Shown in pieces: positions 32,593 to 40,299 of a DNA stretch of 63,665 nucleotides (the stretch's first letter is position 1; every line of letters begins with the position of its first letter). The stretch covers positions 1-63,665 of the forward strand of contig CBDBZY010000042.1 of assembly GCA_965213685.1 (NCBI GenBank), given 5' to 3'. Below the pieces are notes generated by a model. It was not told where the DNA came from. It was given only the letters and a program-made list of their open reading frames with translations, and searched no databases. Source of the DNA: a bacterium (GTDB lineage Bacteria > UBA8248). The position numbers and the translations under genes are program-made.

Positions 32593-33480
32593 TTACTTCC
32601 CCCACGCGATGGCGAACGCGCCGACCACGGACAGGACGCCGCCCATGACGATCTGCGGCGTGATGCGCTCCTGTTTGCGCAGAAACAGCCCGGAGAAGAT
32701 GATGACCCACAGGACGGAGAGGCGGTTGATCGGTATCACCTCCACCACGTCTCCCTCGCGGAACGCCGTCCAGAAGAACAGGGCAGCCAGCGTGTTCGCC
32801 ACGACGCCAAGGCCCATCGCCGCGAATCCCCTGGCGCTCCAGCCCTTCCGCCCTCCCCTCTCCCCGGTGAACGGCATCGCCAGAAGGAGCAGGCACGTCG
32901 CCGTGGTGGTGGAGATCGCGATTCCCAAAGACTCTGAGGGGATGAGGGCAAGGGCGTATTTTCTGAAAACGAACGTGAAGGAAAACAGGAAAGAGGCCAG
33001 GACCGGCACCAGGAAATGGGCGGGCGAGACGCCTTTTTCGAGCGTCTCGCGCTTGTAGACCAACAGGATGGCCCCGACCATGATGGCGAAAGTGCCGACG
33101 GCCACGCCCGCCGAGAGTCGCTCGCCCAGGATGAGCACGCCCAGGAGCGCCGACCAGACGAGTATCGACTGCACCATGATCTGCGTTCGCGCCAGGCCGA
33201 TGAGACGCATCGACCCGAAAATCATGTAGCGCCCGACAGAGCTGCCGAACAGGCCGATCAGCATGAACCACGCGACGCCCTCCAGGGGCCACGCCATCCC
33301 CTCGTCCAGGAGGAGGTAGAGCACTATCGCCAGCGTCGCGGTGAAGGCGTTCATCGCCACGGTCGCCACCGCCGGCCCGATGTGGACGAGCGCCTTGCGA
33401 TACAACACCTGGGAGATGGCGACGAAAAACGCCGCGATGAACGACAGGAGTCTCGGGTCCAGGGATTTGAGCAAAATCAC
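32593..33480 (-). CDS. EamA/DMT family transporter
   Basis: About 10 hydrophobic segments, LGERL, two-domain repeat; start uncertain. Confidence 0.82.
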   Translation of the reverse strand: MILLKSLDPRLLSFIAAFFVAISQVLYRKALVHIGPAVATVAMNAFTATLAIVLYLLLDEGMAWPLEGVAWFMLIGLFGSSVGRYMIFGSMRLIGLARTQIMVQSILVWSALLGVLILGERLSAGVAVGTFAIMVGAILLVYKRETLEKGVSPAHFLVPVLASFLFSFTFVFRKYALALIPSESLGIAISTTTATCLLLLAMPFTGERGGRKGWSARGFAAMGLGVVANTLAALFFWTAFREGDVVEVIPINRLSVLWVIIFSGLFLRKQERITPQIVMGGVLSVVGAFAIAWGK

Positions 33481-33624
33481 CCTACCAAATGAGGGAGCGA
33501 CCGGCTGGCGACGCCTGAACATTGCTGACGATGCGCCTGTTCAGCGAAGCGGAAAGGGTTTTCGGGCGGCGACCGGCCGGCGACGCCTCATCGGGGGGAT
33601 GCGCGCTCCCCGCAAGCCGTCGGC

Positions 33625-35521
33625 CTAGCCCGCCGGATAGCCCAGCCCCCCGAGCGCCTCTTCGATCTCGGGCAGAACGGCCGGATCTTCGATGGTGGCC
33701 GGCGTCCTGTATTCCTCGCCGTCGGCGATGTTCGCCATCGTTCCCCGCAGAATCTTCCCCCGAGCGCGTCTTGGGCAGGCGCCTCACCACCGCCGCCTGC
33801 CGAAACGCCGCCACCGCGCCGATCTGGCGGCGAACGAGCCGCACGACCTCGCCGACGACCTCCTCCTCCGGTTTCTCCACCCCCGCCTTCAGCACCAGAA
33901 AGCCGAGCGGCAGCTGGCCCTTGAGCTGATCCTTCACGCCGATGACGGCGCACTCGGCCACGTCGGGATGGGAGGTCAGCACCTCCTCCATCGCGCCCGT
34001 GGAGAGCCTGTGCCCCGCCACGTTGATGATGTCGTCCGTCCGCGACATCACATAGACGTAGCCCTCCTCGTCCATGTATCCGGCGTCGCCCGTCTTGTAG
34101 AATCCCGGATATTCGCTCAGATACGAGTCGATGAAGCGCGCGTCCGCGTTCCAGAGGGTGGGGAGGCAACCGGGCGGCAGCGGGAGCCTCACGCACAGCG
34201 CGCCCATCTCCCCCGCGCCCAGGGGGCGGCACTCGCTATCGAGAACCTCGAACGCATAGCCCGGCACCGGCTTCGTGGGGGAGCCGTGCTTGACGGGCAG
34301 ATGCTCGATGCCCATGGGATTCGCCAGCATCGGCCAGCCGGTCTCCGTCTGCCAGTAATGGTCGATGACGGGAACTTTCAGGTGCTCCTCCGCCCACTGC
34401 ACGGTGTCCGGGTCGGATCGCTCCCCCGCCAGAAACAGGGTGCGGAAGCCGCTGAGGTCATGCTCCCGCATGAGCGCGGCGTCCGGGTCGTCGCGCTTGA
34501 TGGCGCGAAACGCCGTGGGCGCCGTGAAGAACGCCCTCACCCCATGCTCGGCGATGACGCGCCAGAAGACGCCCGCGTCGGGCGTGCCCACGGGCTTCCC
34601 CTCAAAGAGGATGGTGGTGCAGCCGTGAAGCAGCGGCGCATACACGATATAGGAGTGCCCGACCACCCAGCCGACGTCGGACGCCGCCCAGAACGCCTCG
34701 CCCGGCGCCACGCCGTATACGTTCTGCATCGACCACTTGAGCGCCACCATGTGGCCCCCGTTGTCTCGCACCACCCCCTTGGGCTCCCCCGTCGTTCCCG
34801 AGGTATAGAGGATGTAGAGGGGGTCCGTGGCGGCGAGGGGAACGCAGTCGGCGGGCGCGGCGTCCCGCAGGGAATCGCCCCACTCGACGTCGCGGCCCGC
34901 GATGAGCTCCGCCTCGACCTGGGGGCGCTGCAAGACGATGCAGGCGTCCGGCTTCGCGCTGGAAAGCGCGATCGCCTCGTCGAGCAGCGGCTTGTAGGCG
35001 ATGACGCCCGAGGGCTCCACCCCGCACGATGCGGACACGATGAGCTTCGGCTTCGCGTCGTCGATCCGCGTGGCCAGCTCCCTCGGCGCGAACCCGCCGA
35101 AGACGACGGAGTGCACCGCGCCGATCCGCGCGCAGGCCAGCATGGCTATCGCGGCCTCCGGCACCATGGGCATGTAGATGATGACGCGGTCGCCCTTCTC
35201 CACCCCCAAGGACCGGAGCGCGCCCGCGAAATGCGCCACCTCGCCCAGCAACTCCCCGTAGGTGAACTTTCGGGTGGGCGCCCCCGTGATGGGGGTGTCG
35301 TATATCAGGGCGACCTGCTCCGCCCGTCCCGACTCGACGTGGCGGTCCAGGGCGTTGTAGCAGGTGTTGACCTCGCCTCCGGGGAACCAGCGGTAAAACG
35401 GCGGGTTGGAGTCATCCAGCACCCTCTCCCATCCCTTGTACCAGTGAATCTCCCGCGCCGCCTCCGCCCAGAACGCCTCCGCATCCGTCAGGGAGCGGTC
35501 GTACACCTCCGCATAGCCCAT
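33625..35521 (-). CDS. prpE: Propionyl-CoA synthetase (acyl-CoA ligase); one extra G near 33760
   Basis: NTCYNALDRH, YTSGTTGEPKG, SDVGWVVGHSY, WQTETG, AGHRLSTG; removing one G gives LPKTRSGKILR..PATIEDP ending at TAG 33625. Confidence 0.85.
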
Positions 35522-35736
35522 GCCCTGTCCTCCCATCCACATTTTTTGTTTTGCTCAGCCCCCAACCGGCAACCGATGGCCCACATACTACCAAACTCCG
35601 CCCCTCTTTGCGCCTCCGGCCCGAACCATTCGCCGCGAGGGGCGGGGGGAGGCGCCAAGGCCGCCGCGATTCCGCGCGCGAGGGGGGGGCATTCCGGGAA
35701 TTTCTCCGGAAATTCTCTCCCGGCCAAAGCATTTTC

Positions 35737-35765
35737 TTGCCATCGATCCGCCCAGGATATACATT
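35737..35765 (+). promoter_or_regulatory. Possible promoter of the Rieske/cyt b/HAO operon
   Basis: TTGCCA-N17-TACATT; inverted repeat GAATTTC-TCCG-GAAATTC at 35698-35715 just upstream. Confidence 0.35.
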
Positions 35766-35821: not shown

Positions 35822-36277
35822 ATGGCGTCATCCGAAACAAGAAGGGAGATCGAGCGGCGCGGCTTCATGGCCACGCTCTTCATGGCGGGCGGTCTGATCG
35901 TCAGCTACGGCACCGCCGCGATCTACGGGCTGCGCTACCTCTTCGGCAGGCAGCAGCCGCCCCGCATGGTACAGGTGCTCACCGGCACGATGGGCGACAT
36001 CCCCGACGGGGGAAGCATCCTCGGCCGCGACCTGAGCGGCAGAAAATTCCTCCTCGTGCGCGCGGGCGGGACGGTGCGCGCCTTTTCCACCGCGTGCACG
36101 CATCTGGGATGCCAGGTCTACTGGCAGGGAGAGAAAAAGGTGTTCTTCTGCCCTTGCCACAACGGTTTTTTCGACGCCGACGGAAACCCCACGGCGGGCC
36201 CTCCCCCGACCCCGCTCGCCCAATACCCCGTCGAGGTGCGTGGGACGAGCGTTTTCGTCACCATGCCGGAGGCCTAG
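35822..36277 (+). CDS. Rieske iron-sulfur subunit of a Rieske/cytochrome b complex
   Basis: ERRGFM Tat-like anchor, CTHLGC, CPCHNG, AGPPPTPL. Confidence 0.93.
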   Translation: MASSETRREIERRGFMATLFMAGGLIVSYGTAAIYGLRYLFGRQQPPRMVQVLTGTMGDIPDGGSILGRDLSGRKFLLVRAGGTVRAFSTACTHLGCQVYWQGEKKVFFCPCHNGFFDADGNPTAGPPPTPLAQYPVEVRGTSVFVTMPEA

Positions 36278-36282
36278 GCGCC

Positions 36283-37338
36283 ATGGACAGCCGAATCCCC
36301 CGTTGGATGGGCGAGCGGATTCCCTTCGACTGGGATCACCTCCGACACATCACGAGCGAGCCGATTCCGCGCCACCTGAAAAAATGGTGGTTCTGCGTGG
36401 GCGGCACGCCCCTGTATCTGTTTTTCATTCAAATCATCACGGGCATCGCCCTCGCCTTCTACTACGTGCCAGAGCCGGGCAAGGCGTACGAGTCGGTGCG
36501 CCACATCACCGAGGCGGTGCCCTTCGGCTGGTGGATTCGCGGGATACACCGCTGGGCGGCGGAACTGATGGTGGTGACCGTCATCCTCCACATGATGCGG
36601 GTGTTCTTTACGGGGGCCTATCGCAAGCCCCGCGAGATCAACTGGCTCATCGGCATGGGCCTCCTCATCACCGTGTTCACCTTCGGGTTCACGGGCTATT
36701 CGCTGATCTACAACCAGGTCTCCTACTGGGCCGCGGTCGTGGGCACGAACATCGCGGCGGCGGTGCCCGTCGCGGGCCCCTACCTGGCCGGCTTCCTGCG
36801 CGGCGGGCCCGTCATCAGCGCGAACACGCTCACGCGCTTCTACGTGCTCCACATCGGCATCCTGCCGACCACCGCCTTCGCCCTGCTCGCCCTCCACATC
36901 TTCTTCATCCGCATTCACGGGGTGAGCGAGTTCGTCGACCCGCGGGACGAGGGCGCGAAGCGGGACAGGTTCTTCCCGTTCTTTCCGGACCACTTTCTGA
37001 CGGAGGTGGCCCTGGGCGTTTTTCTCATATTTCTGGTCAGCCAGCTGGCCATCATCTTCCCCGCCCAGATGGGCGAGGCGGCGAATCCGGCCGTCACGCC
37101 CGAGCACATCAAGCCGGAGTGGTACTTCTATCCGGTGTTCCGCTGGCTGAAGCTGTTCTCCTTCGAGGCGGGCATCGTCGGCGCGATTCTCGTCGTCCTC
37201 GTCATGTTCGCCTGGCCGTGGCTGGACGCCGCTATCGAACGCCGCGCACCCGGCAGGGACATCAGCGTGTATGTGGGCATCCTCGCCGTCGTCACGATGA
37301 CGATATTCCTCATCATCGAGGGCGTTTCCGGACATTAG
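36283..37338 (+). CDS. Cytochrome b (b6 and subunit IV in one chain)
   Basis: WWFCVGG, HRW..LHMMRVF, YRKPREINW, FTGYSL, YVLH..LH, KPEWYF. Confidence 0.93.
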   Translation: MDSRIPRWMGERIPFDWDHLRHITSEPIPRHLKKWWFCVGGTPLYLFFIQIITGIALAFYYVPEPGKAYESVRHITEAVPFGWWIRGIHRWAAELMVVTVILHMMRVFFTGAYRKPREINWLIGMGLLITVFTFGFTGYSLIYNQVSYWAAVVGTNIAAAVPVAGPYLAGFLRGGPVISANTLTRFYVLHIGILPTTAFALLALHIFFIRIHGVSEFVDPRDEGAKRDRFFPFFPDHFLTEVALGVFLIFLVSQLAIIFPAQMGEAANPAVTPEHIKPEWYFYPVFRWLKLFSFEAGIVGAILVVLVMFAWPWLDAAIERRAPGRDISVYVGILAVVTMTIFLIIEGVSGH

Positions 37339-37359
37339 AGAGCAGAAAGGAGGGAGCCT

Positions 37360-38700
37360 ATGCAGCTGCAAGCCAAGCAATGGATAGTCGCCATTTTGAG
37401 CCTGTTCTTCCTGGCCTCCCTCGTCATCGTCGGCCTCATCGAGAGCGAGCGCCTCGTGCCCGAGCGCGAGAGGAAAGCCGTCGTCACCGCCAGGAACGAG
37501 GGGTGCGTGAACTGCCACACGGAGAAGTCGCCGGGCATCGTCGCCCAGTGGAAGGACAGCCGTCACTCCGAGGTCGGCGTGGGCTGCATGGACTGCCACG
37601 AGGCGCAGAAAGAGGACAAGGACGCCTGGCAGCACGAGGGCTCCCTGGTGGCCGTCATCGTATCGCCCAAGGACTGCTCGAAGTGCCACGCCCAGCAGGC
37701 GAAGGAGTTCACGGCCAGCCACCACGCCAAGGCGGCGCAGTTCATCGGCAGCCTCGACAACTTCCTGGGCGTGGTCGTCGAGGGCGTGCCCGCGGCGGTG
37801 GGCGGGTGCCAGAAATGTCACGGCTCGACGATCAAGGTGCTCGCGAACGGAAGGCTCGACCCGGCCACCTGGCCCAACACGGGGATGGGGCGAATCAACC
37901 CCGACGGCAGCAACGGCGCGTGTTCGGCCTGCCATGCGCGCCACCAGTTCTCCCCCGCGCAATCGAGACGGCCCGAGAACTGCGGGAAGTGCCACATGGG
38001 GCCGGACCATCCCCAAATCGAGATCTACGAGGAGTCCAAGCACGGCATCGTCTTCCACGCGCGCGAGGCGGAGATGAACCTCGACAGCAAAACCTGGGTG
38101 GTCGGCAAGGACTACACGGCGGCGCCCACCTGCGCGACGTGCCACATGAGCGCGGCGCCGAAGCTCGTCACCACGCATGACGTGGGCAAGCGCATCAGCT
38201 GGACGCTGCGCCCCGTCGTCTCGAAGAAGCTCCCCAACTGGGAGCAGAAGCGCGACGACATGAAAAAGGTGTGCGGGGCCTGTCACGGGCCGGCGTTCGT
38301 GAACGCCTTCTATACGCAATACGACAACGCCATCGACCTCTACAACGAGAAATTCGCGGTTCCGGCCCAAAACGTCATGAAGGCGCTCCGTAAGGAGAAG
38401 AAGATCACGCCCATGCCTTTCGACGAGAAAATCGAGTGGACCTTCTTCGAGCTGTGGCACCACGAGGGCCGCCGCGCGCGGATGGGAGCGTCCATGCAGG
38501 GGCCGGACTTCACCCAGTGGCACGGGTTCTACGAGGTCGCCAAGCACTTCTACTTCAAGTTCCTGCCGGAGGCCGAGGAGCTGTTGCCCGGCGTGAGCGA
38601 GAAGTTCGTGAAGGGCAAGCACCACACCTGGCGCAAGGGGATGAGCAAGGCGCAGATTCAGAAGATGCTCGATTTCTACCAGACCCGCTACGGGAAATAG
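37360..38700 (+). CDS. Membrane-anchored octaheme cytochrome c, hydroxylamine oxidoreductase (HAO) family
   Basis: Eight CxxCH (CVNCH, CMDCH, CSKCH, CQKCH, CSACH, CGKCH, CATCH, CGACH); CHMGPDHPQIEIYEESKHG, APTCATCHM, WHHEGRRARMG; N-terminal TM; AAGGAGG RBS. Confidence 0.92.
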   Translation: MQLQAKQWIVAILSLFFLASLVIVGLIESERLVPERERKAVVTARNEGCVNCHTEKSPGIVAQWKDSRHSEVGVGCMDCHEAQKEDKDAWQHEGSLVAVIVSPKDCSKCHAQQAKEFTASHHAKAAQFIGSLDNFLGVVVEGVPAAVGGCQKCHGSTIKVLANGRLDPATWPNTGMGRINPDGSNGACSACHARHQFSPAQSRRPENCGKCHMGPDHPQIEIYEESKHGIVFHAREAEMNLDSKTWVVGKDYTAAPTCATCHMSAAPKLVTTHDVGKRISWTLRPVVSKKLPNWEQKRDDMKKVCGACHGPAFVNAFYTQYDNAIDLYNEKFAVPAQNVMKALRKEKKITPMPFDEKIEWTFFELWHHEGRRARMGASMQGPDFTQWHGFYEVAKHFYFKFLPEAEELLPGVSEKFVKGKHHTWRKGMSKAQIQKMLDFYQTRYGK

Positions 38701-38858: not shown

Positions 38859-40160
38859 TTATAGCTCGATCACGTCCATCGCGTCGGGGTTCAGAACGCG
38901 GGGGCCGCCCTCCTCGACGATCACCTGGGGGCCGAACGCGAGGGACATCCTGTCCGCATGCGCCGCCTTCACCTCGACGGCGAGCGTCATGCCCGCCTCG
39001 ACCTCGAAATCCTCCAGGAAGCCATAGCGCCCGCCAGCCAGCGCGCGCCACTCCGGGTTCTCCGCCAGGCTTCCCTCCACGAAGGGCTCCCGCCACGGAG
39101 CCCCCCGGGGGATATCGCCCGCGCATATCGTCGTCATGGGCGGCTCGATGCCGTCGATTCCCACCCCGTGCACCTGGGGGATCTCGTGATAATACCCGCT
39201 CCGCACGACCGCCTCGCCGGAGACGCGGTCCACCTCCGACCAGGGCGTCCCCGGCTTGAGCGCCCCGAGCGTGGCGTGGAGGCTCTCCCGCACCGCCTCG
39301 CGCAGCGGCTTGTACTCCTCGTCCACCGGGCCAATCGACATGGCGGTGTGCGGGTGGCTCCAGTAGCCGCCGTAGCGCGCATAGTAGCCGATGCACAGCA
39401 TGTCCCCCGCGCGCAGAATCCGGTCCGTGGGCCTTCTGTTCACCGGATAGCCCTTCCCGGAGGAGAGAATCAGCCAGTTGTCGCGACCCGGCTCCGCGCC
39501 CGCCCGCAGGCTGGCGTCGAAGAGCGCCGCGTATATCTCGTTCTCCCGCACGCCCGGGCGGCAGCACGCGAGCACGGCGTCTATCTCGACGTTCGCCATC
39601 TCGCCCGCCTTCTCCATCATCGCGATCTCCTCGGGACTCTTCACCACGCGAAGGCGCGCGAGGATGTCCGAGGCGTCCGAGAAGGCCGCATCCGGCAACA
39701 GGCGCAGGAGATTCCGGTAGGTCATGTAGGGAATCGCGCCCTCCGCGCCGTATCCGCCGCCGATGAGGCCGACGATTCCGATCCGCCCCCCCTCGCAGCC
39801 CAGCTCCCGGATGGCGTCGGCGGCCACGACGCTCACCTTGCCCTCGTGGCCCCGGTAGCGCACCCCCTCGAAGCAGGACTCGGTGTACCACTTTCCCCAG
39901 TTCTGCAGGAGCCAGAAGGTGACGGGCGCCCCCTCCCGGGGAAACACCATGCTGCGCTCCCCGTAATCCCCCCCGTCGAGCCAGCGGACGTTGCCGCTGC
40001 CGTTCATCCCCCGCCCCACGACTACGAGGCAGTCCAGCCCCCGCTCGTCCATGACGGCGCGAACCGCGCGCCACCTCCTGTCGCGCTCCCCGGTCGAAAA
40101 CGCGGCCGCCGCGTCGCCCAGGCGTCCATCCTTGGGAAAAAACCTCGGGTCGGTTACCAT
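38859..40160 (-). CDS. M24 (creatinase / Xaa-Pro peptidase) fold protein
   Basis: RRWRAVRAVMDERGLD, LRVVKSPEEI, RPGVRE, YGGY, HGVG, GMTLAVE. Confidence 0.8.
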   Translation of the reverse strand: MVTDPRFFPKDGRLGDAAAAFSTGERDRRWRAVRAVMDERGLDCLVVVGRGMNGSGNVRWLDGGDYGERSMVFPREGAPVTFWLLQNWGKWYTESCFEGVRYRGHEGKVSVVAADAIRELGCEGGRIGIVGLIGGGYGAEGAIPYMTYRNLLRLLPDAAFSDASDILARLRVVKSPEEIAMMEKAGEMANVEIDAVLACCRPGVRENEIYAALFDASLRAGAEPGRDNWLILSSGKGYPVNRRPTDRILRAGDMLCIGYYARYGGYWSHPHTAMSIGPVDEEYKPLREAVRESLHATLGALKPGTPWSEVDRVSGEAVVRSGYYHEIPQVHGVGIDGIEPPMTTICAGDIPRGAPWREPFVEGSLAENPEWRALAGGRYGFLEDFEVEAGMTLAVEVKAAHADRMSLAFGPQVIVEEGGPRVLNPDAMDVIEL

Positions 40161-40299
40161 TGTCGTCTCCTGAACGCCTGGGGGGAGGATGTTGTCCATG
40201 CGCACGGCTGCGGACGCCCACGCGCGGAATCGCTTCATTTCGCCCGGAGAGAATACAGGCAGCGGGCCGCATTATACAGAACGCCCCGGGAGCCCGAAA

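Follow-up and report, generated by a model that had tools for sequence, protein, structure and literature searches.

A Rieske/cytochrome b/octaheme cytochrome operon in a bacterium of the UBA8248 lineage: a putative quinol:nitrite reductase

Gene clusters that join a Rieske protein and a cytochrome b to an octaheme cytochrome c have been described from genomes and transcriptomes since about 2015-2017. In Nitrospira, an octaheme gene is co-localised with two Rieske/cytochrome b genes, suggesting interaction with the quinone pool (PMC6311188), and an octaheme gene cluster is also reported for N. japonica NJ1 (PMC5767232). The octaheme "ONR" gene of N. moscoviensis and the two Rieske/cytochrome b genes upstream of it are expressed at high and similar levels with nitrite as the sole nitrogen source, and the N. 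japonica enzyme is expressed on nitrite and not with ammonium (PMC6606698). In Caldithrix abyssi, Cabys_2558, Cabys_2557 and Cabys_2556 encode a Rieske protein, a cytochrome b and an epsilonHao beside napMADGH, and Kublanov et al. (2017) proposed that electrons pass from Rieske/cytochrome b "directly to the octaheme epsilonHao", possibly building up proton-motive force (PMC5317091). In Kuenenia stuttgartiensis, all subunits of the R/b-3 complex (Kuste4569-4574) comigrate, including the HAO-like Kuste4574 (PMC12954380), the activity of which is unproven and for which reduction of nitrite to nitric oxide (NO) has been proposed (PMC12954380; PMC12485887). Here we describe a three-gene module of this type in contig CBDBZY010000042.1 (assembly GCA_965213685.1) of a bacterium of the GTDB lineage UBA8248. 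The whole stretch analysed, 63,665 nucleotides, is referred to as the window.

The module consists of three open reading frames (ORFs) arranged head to tail on the + strand between positions 35822 and 38700, with coordinates that were checked exactly:

35822..36277, + strand: Rieske 2Fe-2S protein, 151 aa (Pfam PF00355, E 8e-14)
36283..37338, + strand: cytochrome b, 351 aa (Pfam PF00033, E 5e-53, and PF00032, E 3e-13)
37360..38700, + strand: octaheme cytochrome c assigned to the HAO/IhOCC clade, 446 aa (Pfam PF13447, E 7e-28)

The spacers were re-measured as 5 nt and 21 nt, exactly as in the original prediction, which had been made from the letters of the window. The first reads GCGCC and is preceded by a Shine-Dalgarno sequence (GGAGG) within the 3' end of the Rieske gene, and the second itself holds a Shine-Dalgarno sequence (AAGGAGG). 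Gene order, common strand and short spacers are thus those of the Nitrospira OCC and Caldithrix epsilonHao modules. Among the window ORFs, a Pfam search found no gene for a monoheme cytochrome of the c1/f type in the operon or its flanks, as had been predicted, and the third gene is that of the octaheme protein.

The Nitrospira OCC/ONR system shares with this locus the three-gene unit of Rieske protein, cytochrome b and periplasmic octaheme, and for both a link between the quinone pool and nitrite reduction is proposed. As described, however, the surroundings of the Nitrospira cluster are genes of nitrogen assimilation (amt, glnB, cyanase, urease), and the cluster takes the place of NirA. The module in the window is solitary, with acyl-CoA and peptidase genes around it, in a genome that encodes a NirA/Sir-family protein elsewhere. 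The association of module and nap genes known from Caldithrix recurs among the relatives of the window's module (napA, napG, napH and napB in locus L067 and others), but the window has no nap cluster and the genome no NapA above cut-off. The R/b-3 complex of Kuenenia is likewise a Rieske/cytochrome b complex bearing an HAO-like octaheme thought to reduce nitrite. According to its description, it differs in being encoded by six genes, among them separate ones for b6 and subunit IV, one for an additional hexa-/octaheme c subunit and one for an NAD(P) oxidoreductase, and it is proposed to form NO while bifurcating electrons to NAD(P)H. The module in the window is limited to three genes, with cytochrome b fused; it has none of the further subunits, and its flanks are unrelated. 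Published analogues much nearer than the anammox cluster, which the original prediction named as the best-known one, are the Nitrospira OCC/ONR module and the Rieske/cytochrome b/epsilonHao module of Caldithrix. The module is not new in principle; what the window contributes is a further carrier, with surroundings that are unusual in being free of nitrogen genes.

Family and catalytic pocket of the octaheme cytochrome

The octaheme translation contains eight CXXCH motifs and no CXXCK. Conservation was assessed in 70 aligned rows, comprising 24 octahemes linked to Rieske/cytochrome b genes and 46 unlinked ones, and all 24 Cys/His positions of the eight motifs are invariant in 70/70 rows. To place the protein, a profile built from 63 octaheme relatives was searched against solved chains. 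The best match was IhOCC (4qo5; E 4.6e-90), followed by Nitrosomonas HAO (4e-48) and the nitrite-reducing anammox HAOr (6h5l; 1e-45), with weaker matches to Kuenenia HOX (1e-35), HDH (5e-34), NrfA (~1e-7) and ONR (~1e-5). An AlphaFold2 model of the octaheme protein (predicted local distance difference test, pLDDT, 92.6; predicted template modelling score, pTM, 0.85) gave the same picture, with a template modelling score (TM-score) of 0.72 to 4qo5 and of 0.55-0.64 to HAO, HAOr and HDH chains, HAOr (6h5l) being second-best at 0.61, against 0.37 for the Trichlorobacter enzyme and at most 0.26 for NrfA and the Thioalkalivibrio ONR. Because both the profile E-values and the TM-scores favour IhOCC, HAO, HAOr and HDH, we assign the octaheme to the HAO/IhOCC clade and not to NrfA/ONR; its position relative to the named members of the family is given by these comparisons with solved chains.

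An identity as NrfA or ONR was ruled out by the missing CXXCK motif and the poor fold match. By analogy, the overall reaction is probably the same as that of NrfHA and ONR (TvNiR), namely quinol-dependent reduction of nitrite to ammonium in the periplasm. These enzymes differ from the window's octaheme in the CXXCK heme, in fold and in sequence (profile E 1e-7 to 1e-4). Moreover, the role of quinol dehydrogenase falls to a Rieske/cytochrome b pair in the window and to NrfH in NrfHA, so that energy coupling could differ.

The residues of the octaheme that bear on its chemistry and its location are the following:

37366-37455, + strand: N-terminal membrane helix, residues 3-32 (AlphaFold2 model)
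37807-37821, + strand: fourth CXXCH motif, C150-H154, corresponding to the catalytic heme of HAO
38005-38010, + strand: Asp216-His217 pair, invariant in 70/70 rows
38518-38520, + strand: Trp387, invariant in 70/70 rows, opposite the position of the HAO cross-linking Tyr

The string CGKCHMGPDHP, which follows the sixth heme motif, aligns with C..CH.G.DH of HAO-type chains, and its D216-H217 pair is also found in 53/63 rows of a wider alignment. We take the Asp-His pair after the sixth heme motif to belong to the catalytic pocket of heme 4 in HAO. Y223 and Y252 are invariant in 24/24 linked and 46/46 unlinked rows, and besides H217 there are nine further invariant His outside the motifs (H69, H92, H122, H195, H228, H273, H367, H368 and H388). 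This number would suffice for seven distal ligands, as required if the protein follows the HAO/IhOCC pattern of seven bis-His hemes and a single five-coordinate heme that binds the substrate. Because the pocket, the heme motifs and the nine His are identical in linked and unlinked rows, the Rieske-linked octaheme does not look like a degenerate electron wire; judged from these alignments, it is the same enzyme plus an anchor.

In Nitrosomonas HAO, the Tyr cross-linked to the P460 heme is presumably residue 467. An ungapped HMMER block (profile positions 359-410 against residues 441-492 of 4fas/1fgj) places HAO residue 467 opposite W387 of the octaheme (profile position 385), an equivalence that comes from the sequence profile and not from a structural alignment. 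The cross-linking Tyr of a P460 enzyme is thus replaced by a Trp throughout the 70 rows, and the presence of Trp at this position points to an enzyme working in the reductive direction. In fact, the proteins of the clade that lack the Tyr cross-link, IhOCC and HAOr, are described as reductive (PMC9250108).

The same source calls IhOCC (Ignicoccus hospitalis Igni_0955, PDB 4QO5) an octaheme nitrite reductase (PMC9250108). This closest solved relative shares with the window's protein the eight-heme core and the absence of the P460 cross-link at 24% identity. It differs in having Asp-Val where the window octaheme and HAO have Asp-His, in carrying about 100 additional residues between hemes 7 and 8, and in being archaeal; the available portion of its description mentions no Rieske/cytochrome b partner.

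Partner proteins, relatives and the predicted complex

The two upstream genes have the features of the Rieske/cytochrome b superfamily, namely both cluster boxes (C-x-H-x-G-C and C-x-C-H) with a twin-arginine export motif in the one protein, and four invariant His with a PEWY-type quinol-oxidation (Qo) motif in the other. The Rieske protein carries its twin-arginine motif at R12-R13, together with an N-terminal membrane helix, and two cluster boxes recognised as sequence motifs:

36095-36112, + strand: Rieske cluster box CTHLGC, residues 92-97
36149-36160, + strand: Rieske cluster box CPCH, residues 110-113

In an alignment of 20 module Rieske proteins, R12, R13, C92, C97, C110, C112 and H113 are invariant in 20/20, and H94 is kept in at least 90%, with Asp instead in two loci of Deltaproteobacteria type.

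The cytochrome b is a fusion of a b6-like N-terminal part (PF00033) and a subunit-IV-like C-terminal part (PF00032), and the NCBIfam models closest to it, Geobacter ExtP and cytochrome b6, both score under their cut-offs. H89, H103, H190 and H205 are invariant in 20/20 aligned module sequences and are, judging by their positions, the presumed ligands of the two b hemes. PEWY stands at residues 278-281 (nt 37114-37125) and is present in 21/23 module loci; in the Deltaproteobacteria-type loci, it is replaced by PPWY (cytochrome b L008:4838-5857 and L010:2048-3067). In these same two loci the first Rieske box reads CTDLGC, with Asp replacing the first His ligand (L008:4299-4742 and L010:1586-2029), and the two changes together look like a variant cluster and Qo site. 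It is also observed that Cys38 of the window's cytochrome b lies in an FCVGG motif, which is shared by 7/20 aligned module cytochromes b (those of the window's clade and of the Delta-type loci), the others of the 20 having Ala or Gly at this position. We take this Cys38/FCVGG motif to resemble the cysteine that binds heme ci in b6-type cytochromes.

Relatives of the octaheme are numerous, with at least 8000 proteins, the best 120 of which share 56-90% identity, and with 1979 clusters at 50% identity in a representative library (E up to 0.001). In species-representative genomes they occupy 484 places across many phyla, and members of the family are annotated merely as "multiheme cytochrome". 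The best 80 of these 484 places were fetched and 68 could be assessed, the remaining 12/80 having been excluded for less than 1600 nt of upstream sequence, a cut N-terminus or an N-terminal piece that was too short. In the synteny search that the original prediction had proposed as a check, Rieske and cytochrome b genes lie immediately upstream on the same strand in 23/68 loci and elsewhere in the locus in 3/68, and are missing in 42/68. The recurrence of the three-gene order directly upstream in 23 loci indicates that it is more than chance. The 23 linked loci belong to records that carry the labels Nitrospinota, Planctomycetota, Bacteroidota, Chlorobiota, Thermodesulfobacteriota or "Deltaproteobacteria" and to further bacteria, and the 42 unlinked ones are mostly from Acidobacteriota; in L027, the unlinked locus examined in detail, the octaheme gene is solitary. 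One of the three exceptions in gene order is an Acidobacteriota locus with the order octaheme, Rieske, cytochrome b (L013:5989-8838).

The N-terminus of the octaheme varies together with this synteny. In the window's protein, residues 3-32 form a single long helix in the AlphaFold2 model and are the most hydrophobic segment of the chain. All 23 linked octahemes have an N-terminal helix with an uncharged run of 18-20 residues followed by charged residues, and their 19-residue hydropathy is 2.39-3.11, against a median of 1.92 in the 42 unlinked ones, several of which (e.g., L027 and L018) show an apparent cleavable signal-peptide site when judged by eye. These features suggest that the N-terminal helix of the linked octahemes stays uncleaved and serves as a membrane anchor. 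On a FastTree phylogeny of the mature domains (74 rows, built without 7 truncated loci and from an alignment that left out the N-terminus), the adjacency to Rieske/cytochrome b requires 3 changes. A different N-terminus is seen in a Thermoleophilia octaheme (L007:6001-7296), which is lipoprotein-like and ends in LAGC, with neither helix anchor nor plain signal peptide.

Several relatives of about 600-730 aa (P0125, P0142, P0149 and P0216) were considered as candidate fusions of cytochrome b and octaheme and were rejected, as their membrane domain is CopD and not cytochrome b. They consist of an N-terminal CopD-like membrane domain followed by the eight-heme part; P0125 and P0142 additionally carry a cytochrome b5-like domain, and we have not seen such a fused module described.

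Multimer modelling, also suggested with the original prediction, yielded a predicted docking interface. The three-chain model has an interaction score (ipSAE) of 0.74 (0.72-0.75 between runs) against 0.13 for the best control, with at least 87% of contacts in common between runs and a partner pLDDT of at least 85; in a calibration that holds roughly for this model, for which our own alignments were used, the ipSAE mark was attained by 58/80 solved complexes and 2/110 mismatched pairs. In the model, the octaheme helix (residues 3-43) packs against Rieske residues 13-35 and cytochrome b residues 77-84 and 235-257, and octaheme residues 71-78 and 108-111, beside the motifs of hemes 2 and 3, contact the Rieske head. 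From this model and from the co-variation of anchor and synteny, we infer that the three proteins very probably form one complex.

Nitrite reduction and competing explanations

The neighbours of the module in other genomes connect it with nitrogen. Families seen repeatedly in the 113 ORFs that flank 17 module loci are molybdopterin oxidoreductases (7), Fer4 proteins (7), NapB (6), porins of the Alginate_exp type (6), transporters of ammonium (3) and regulators of the Rrf2 type (3). The order in L067 is Rrf2, porin, Rieske, cytochrome b, octaheme, NapA, NapG, NapH, NapB; in L008 two Amt genes precede the module and a NirB-like reductase follows it; ammonium transporters also flank the module in L010; and in L012 a molybdopterin enzyme comes after it. 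The nap, amt and nirB-like neighbours in these relatives tie the module to nitrate/nitrite and ammonium metabolism. The porin gene stands immediately before the Rieske gene in loci of Bacteroidota and Chlorobiota (L067:3112-4446 and the like), with Rrf2 preceding the porin in at least L067, which suggests that the module has an uptake channel of its own and a switch responding to nitrite/NO.

We favor the reading that the module is a quinol:nitrite (or hydroxylamine) reductase that makes ammonium, with a probability of roughly 60%, its catalytic direction, substrate, product and energy coupling being inferred. The Rieske protein and the two-heme cytochrome b would oxidise quinol at the PEWY-type Qo site in the manner of bc1 and b6f complexes, and one electron per quinol would pass from the Rieske cluster into the heme chain of the octaheme and not to a cytochrome c1/f. 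The uncleaved N-terminal helix would hold the octaheme against the membrane helices of its two partners. Electrons would then reach the fourth heme, with its HAO-type Asp-His pocket and no Tyr cross-link, where nitrite, and probably hydroxylamine or NO too, would be reduced on the periplasmic side, most likely through to ammonium. Given a normal Q-cycle along the b-heme path, this step would be coupled to proton-motive force. The organism of the window could in this way use external nitrite for respiration, nitrogen scavenging or detoxification. The core of the original prediction, a quinol-oxidising Rieske/cytochrome b pair feeding a catalytic, membrane-anchored octaheme of the HAO family that works on a nitrogen oxide, thus finds support in the clade, the Asp-His pair, the anchor, the context in relatives and the predicted complex, as far as sequences and models can speak to it.

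A more specific form of the quinol:nitrite reductase is an energy-conserving nitrite ammonifier in which single membrane helices attach a trimeric enzyme to a dimeric core of Rieske protein and cytochrome b, and this we put forward only tentatively. Coupling to energy has already been voiced for Caldithrix (PMC5317091), so that only its demonstration would be new. If true, a heterotroph without a detected nitrate reductase could respire or scavenge the nitrite of its neighbours, and the module would be a natural case of a catalytic enzyme standing in the place of cytochrome c1. [quoted passage not shown]

Several observations weigh against the module being an ammonium-forming nitrite reductase. 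No nitrogen genes were found within ~10 kb on either side of the operon (ten neighbours, by Pfam), and the 94%-complete genome yielded neither NrfA, NirK, NirS nor Hcp, nor any NapA or NarG above cut-off; with no nitrate reductase found, nitrite would have to come from outside. A NirA/Sir-family protein adjoining a siroheme gene is encoded on another contig (C30), so the octaheme need not be the sole nitrite reductase; this NIR_SIR protein falls under every NCBIfam cut-off, so that it can be given only the family label and neither that of a nitrite nor that of a sulfite reductase. In L008, the cytoplasmic NirB-like reductase beside the module weakens the idea of an assimilatory enzyme there. 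The likeness to the Nitrospira and Caldithrix systems is one of gene order and published descriptions, the sole tie by sequence being a homologue in a Nitrospirota metagenome-assembled genome that is 59% identical to the window octaheme. Our literature search, which lacked most subscription journals, found no report of measured activity, product or complex structure for the module. The product may also be other than ammonium, as the closest anammox relatives, HAOr and, by proposal, Kuste4574, make NO. Rieske/cytochrome b complexes are dimers and HAO-family enzymes trimers, two symmetries that would have to be reconciled in one complex. The placement in the complex model may draw on the known position of the cytochrome c1/f helix beside the Rieske helix, and the co-variation of anchor and synteny is real but amounts to only about 3 independent changes.

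It could also be that the complex is the same and the octaheme makes NO from nitrite by one-electron reduction, or mainly detoxifies hydroxylamine or NO, which we regard as rather unlikely. HAOr, second-best among the structural matches, has no Tyr cross-link and converts nitrite to NO (Soares et al., PMC9250108; PMC12485887). An opportunistic or protective role would fit a genome without a detected nitrate reductase or other respiratory nitrogen gene, and so would the Rrf2-type regulators beside the module (3 of the 113 flanking ORFs), although NsrR-like sensing of NO or nitrite by them is a guess. However, the octaheme is much nearer by profile to IhOCC, a described nitrite reductase (PMC9250108), than to HAOr, and the Nitrospira enzyme is expressed when nitrite is the only nitrogen source (PMC6606698), for which reason ammonium must be the product there. 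The ammonium transporters adjoining the module in L008 and L010 likewise speak for ammonium, and no NO reductase was seen beside the module in a survey that included no search aimed at it.

A further explanation, which we consider improbable, is that the octaheme is an electron wire in place of cytochrome c1, passing electrons from the Rieske protein to NapAB, a terminal oxidase or other reductases, with a non-catalytic pocket. The module directly precedes napAGHB in Bacteroidota and Chlorobiota, where napC was not seen, Kublanov et al. consider Rieske/cytochrome b as a donor to Nap (PMC5317091), and in many Rieske/cytochrome b complexes the place of c1 is taken by multiheme c subunits (PMC12954380). 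Against a wire stands the invariance of D216-H217, W387 and the remaining pocket in all 70 rows, including the 46 unlinked ones, many of which are apparently soluble and solitary in their loci and so cannot be substitutes for c1. Moreover, a second Rieske/cytochrome b6/subunit-IV cluster in the genome can serve its single heme-copper oxidase, and the octaheme gene is present in only 5/22 other species of the genus, as befits an accessory trait and not a core complex III.

Finally, an oxidative function like that of nitrifier HAO, with electrons from hydroxylamine or hydrazine entering the membrane complex, is highly improbable, because its support from HAO family membership, the Asp-His pair and the JGI label "hydroxylamine dehydrogenase" on several relatives is countered by the Trp aligned with the Tyr that defines the oxidative P460 heme, by the reductive nature of the described proteins without this cross-link (PMC9250108), by a Rieske/cytochrome b pair that draws electrons from quinol and could run in reverse only at an energetic cost, and by the nap, amt and nirB context in relatives, in which no ammonia monooxygenase was seen, no search of the window aimed at amo or hzs having been made.

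Surroundings of the operon and host genome

Both genes flanking the operon lie on the opposite strand, an AMP-binding acyl-CoA synthetase upstream (33482-35542) and an M24 peptidase downstream (38859-40238), and the operon is therefore self-contained. The ten neighbour genes between 25.6 and 44.1 kb were assigned by Pfam to acyl-CoA ligase and dehydrogenase, AtuA, HD, EamA, M24, pyridoxal-phosphate (PLP) enzyme, M20 and metallo-beta-lactamase (MBL) families; they give no hint of the substrate of the octaheme and bear out the heterotrophic surroundings described in the original prediction, with acyl-CoA, peptidase and transporter genes among them. The absence of nrf genes, which had been predicted for the window, extends to NrfA across the whole 94%-complete genome.

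A scan for promoters and terminators in the operon region gave one candidate and no terminator-like site:

35737..35765, + strand: promoter-like site, candidate only (TTGCCA, 17 nt, TACATT), with its end 57 nt ahead of the Rieske start

This site lies within the 279-nt divergent intergenic region and is not above chance (1 found, against a mean of 0.6 in shuffled sequences). In the upstream acyl-CoA synthetase ORF (33482-35542, - strand), the last Pfam domain stops at residue 595 of 686, and an Arg/Gly-rich tail overlaps the next gene, EamA (32593-33522); the tail may be due to a frameshift or to read-through of the true stop.

The genome has an estimated contamination of 3.7%. Its second Rieske/cytochrome b6/subunit-IV cluster, with split b subunits, is located on contig C15 (L082:5280-7496, - strand); together with the sporadic presence of the octaheme gene in the genus, it rules out the module as the main complex III, and the module is an accessory, stand-alone trait in this genome and genus. 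The second cluster has no obvious c-type cytochrome gene adjacent to it, and a 4Fe-4S ferredoxin-like ORF lies nearby (L082:3391-3870). The assembly comprises 7.97 Mb in 71 contigs, against 2.9-4.6 Mb for the 22 other species of the genus, and may represent an unusually large genome or a merged bin.

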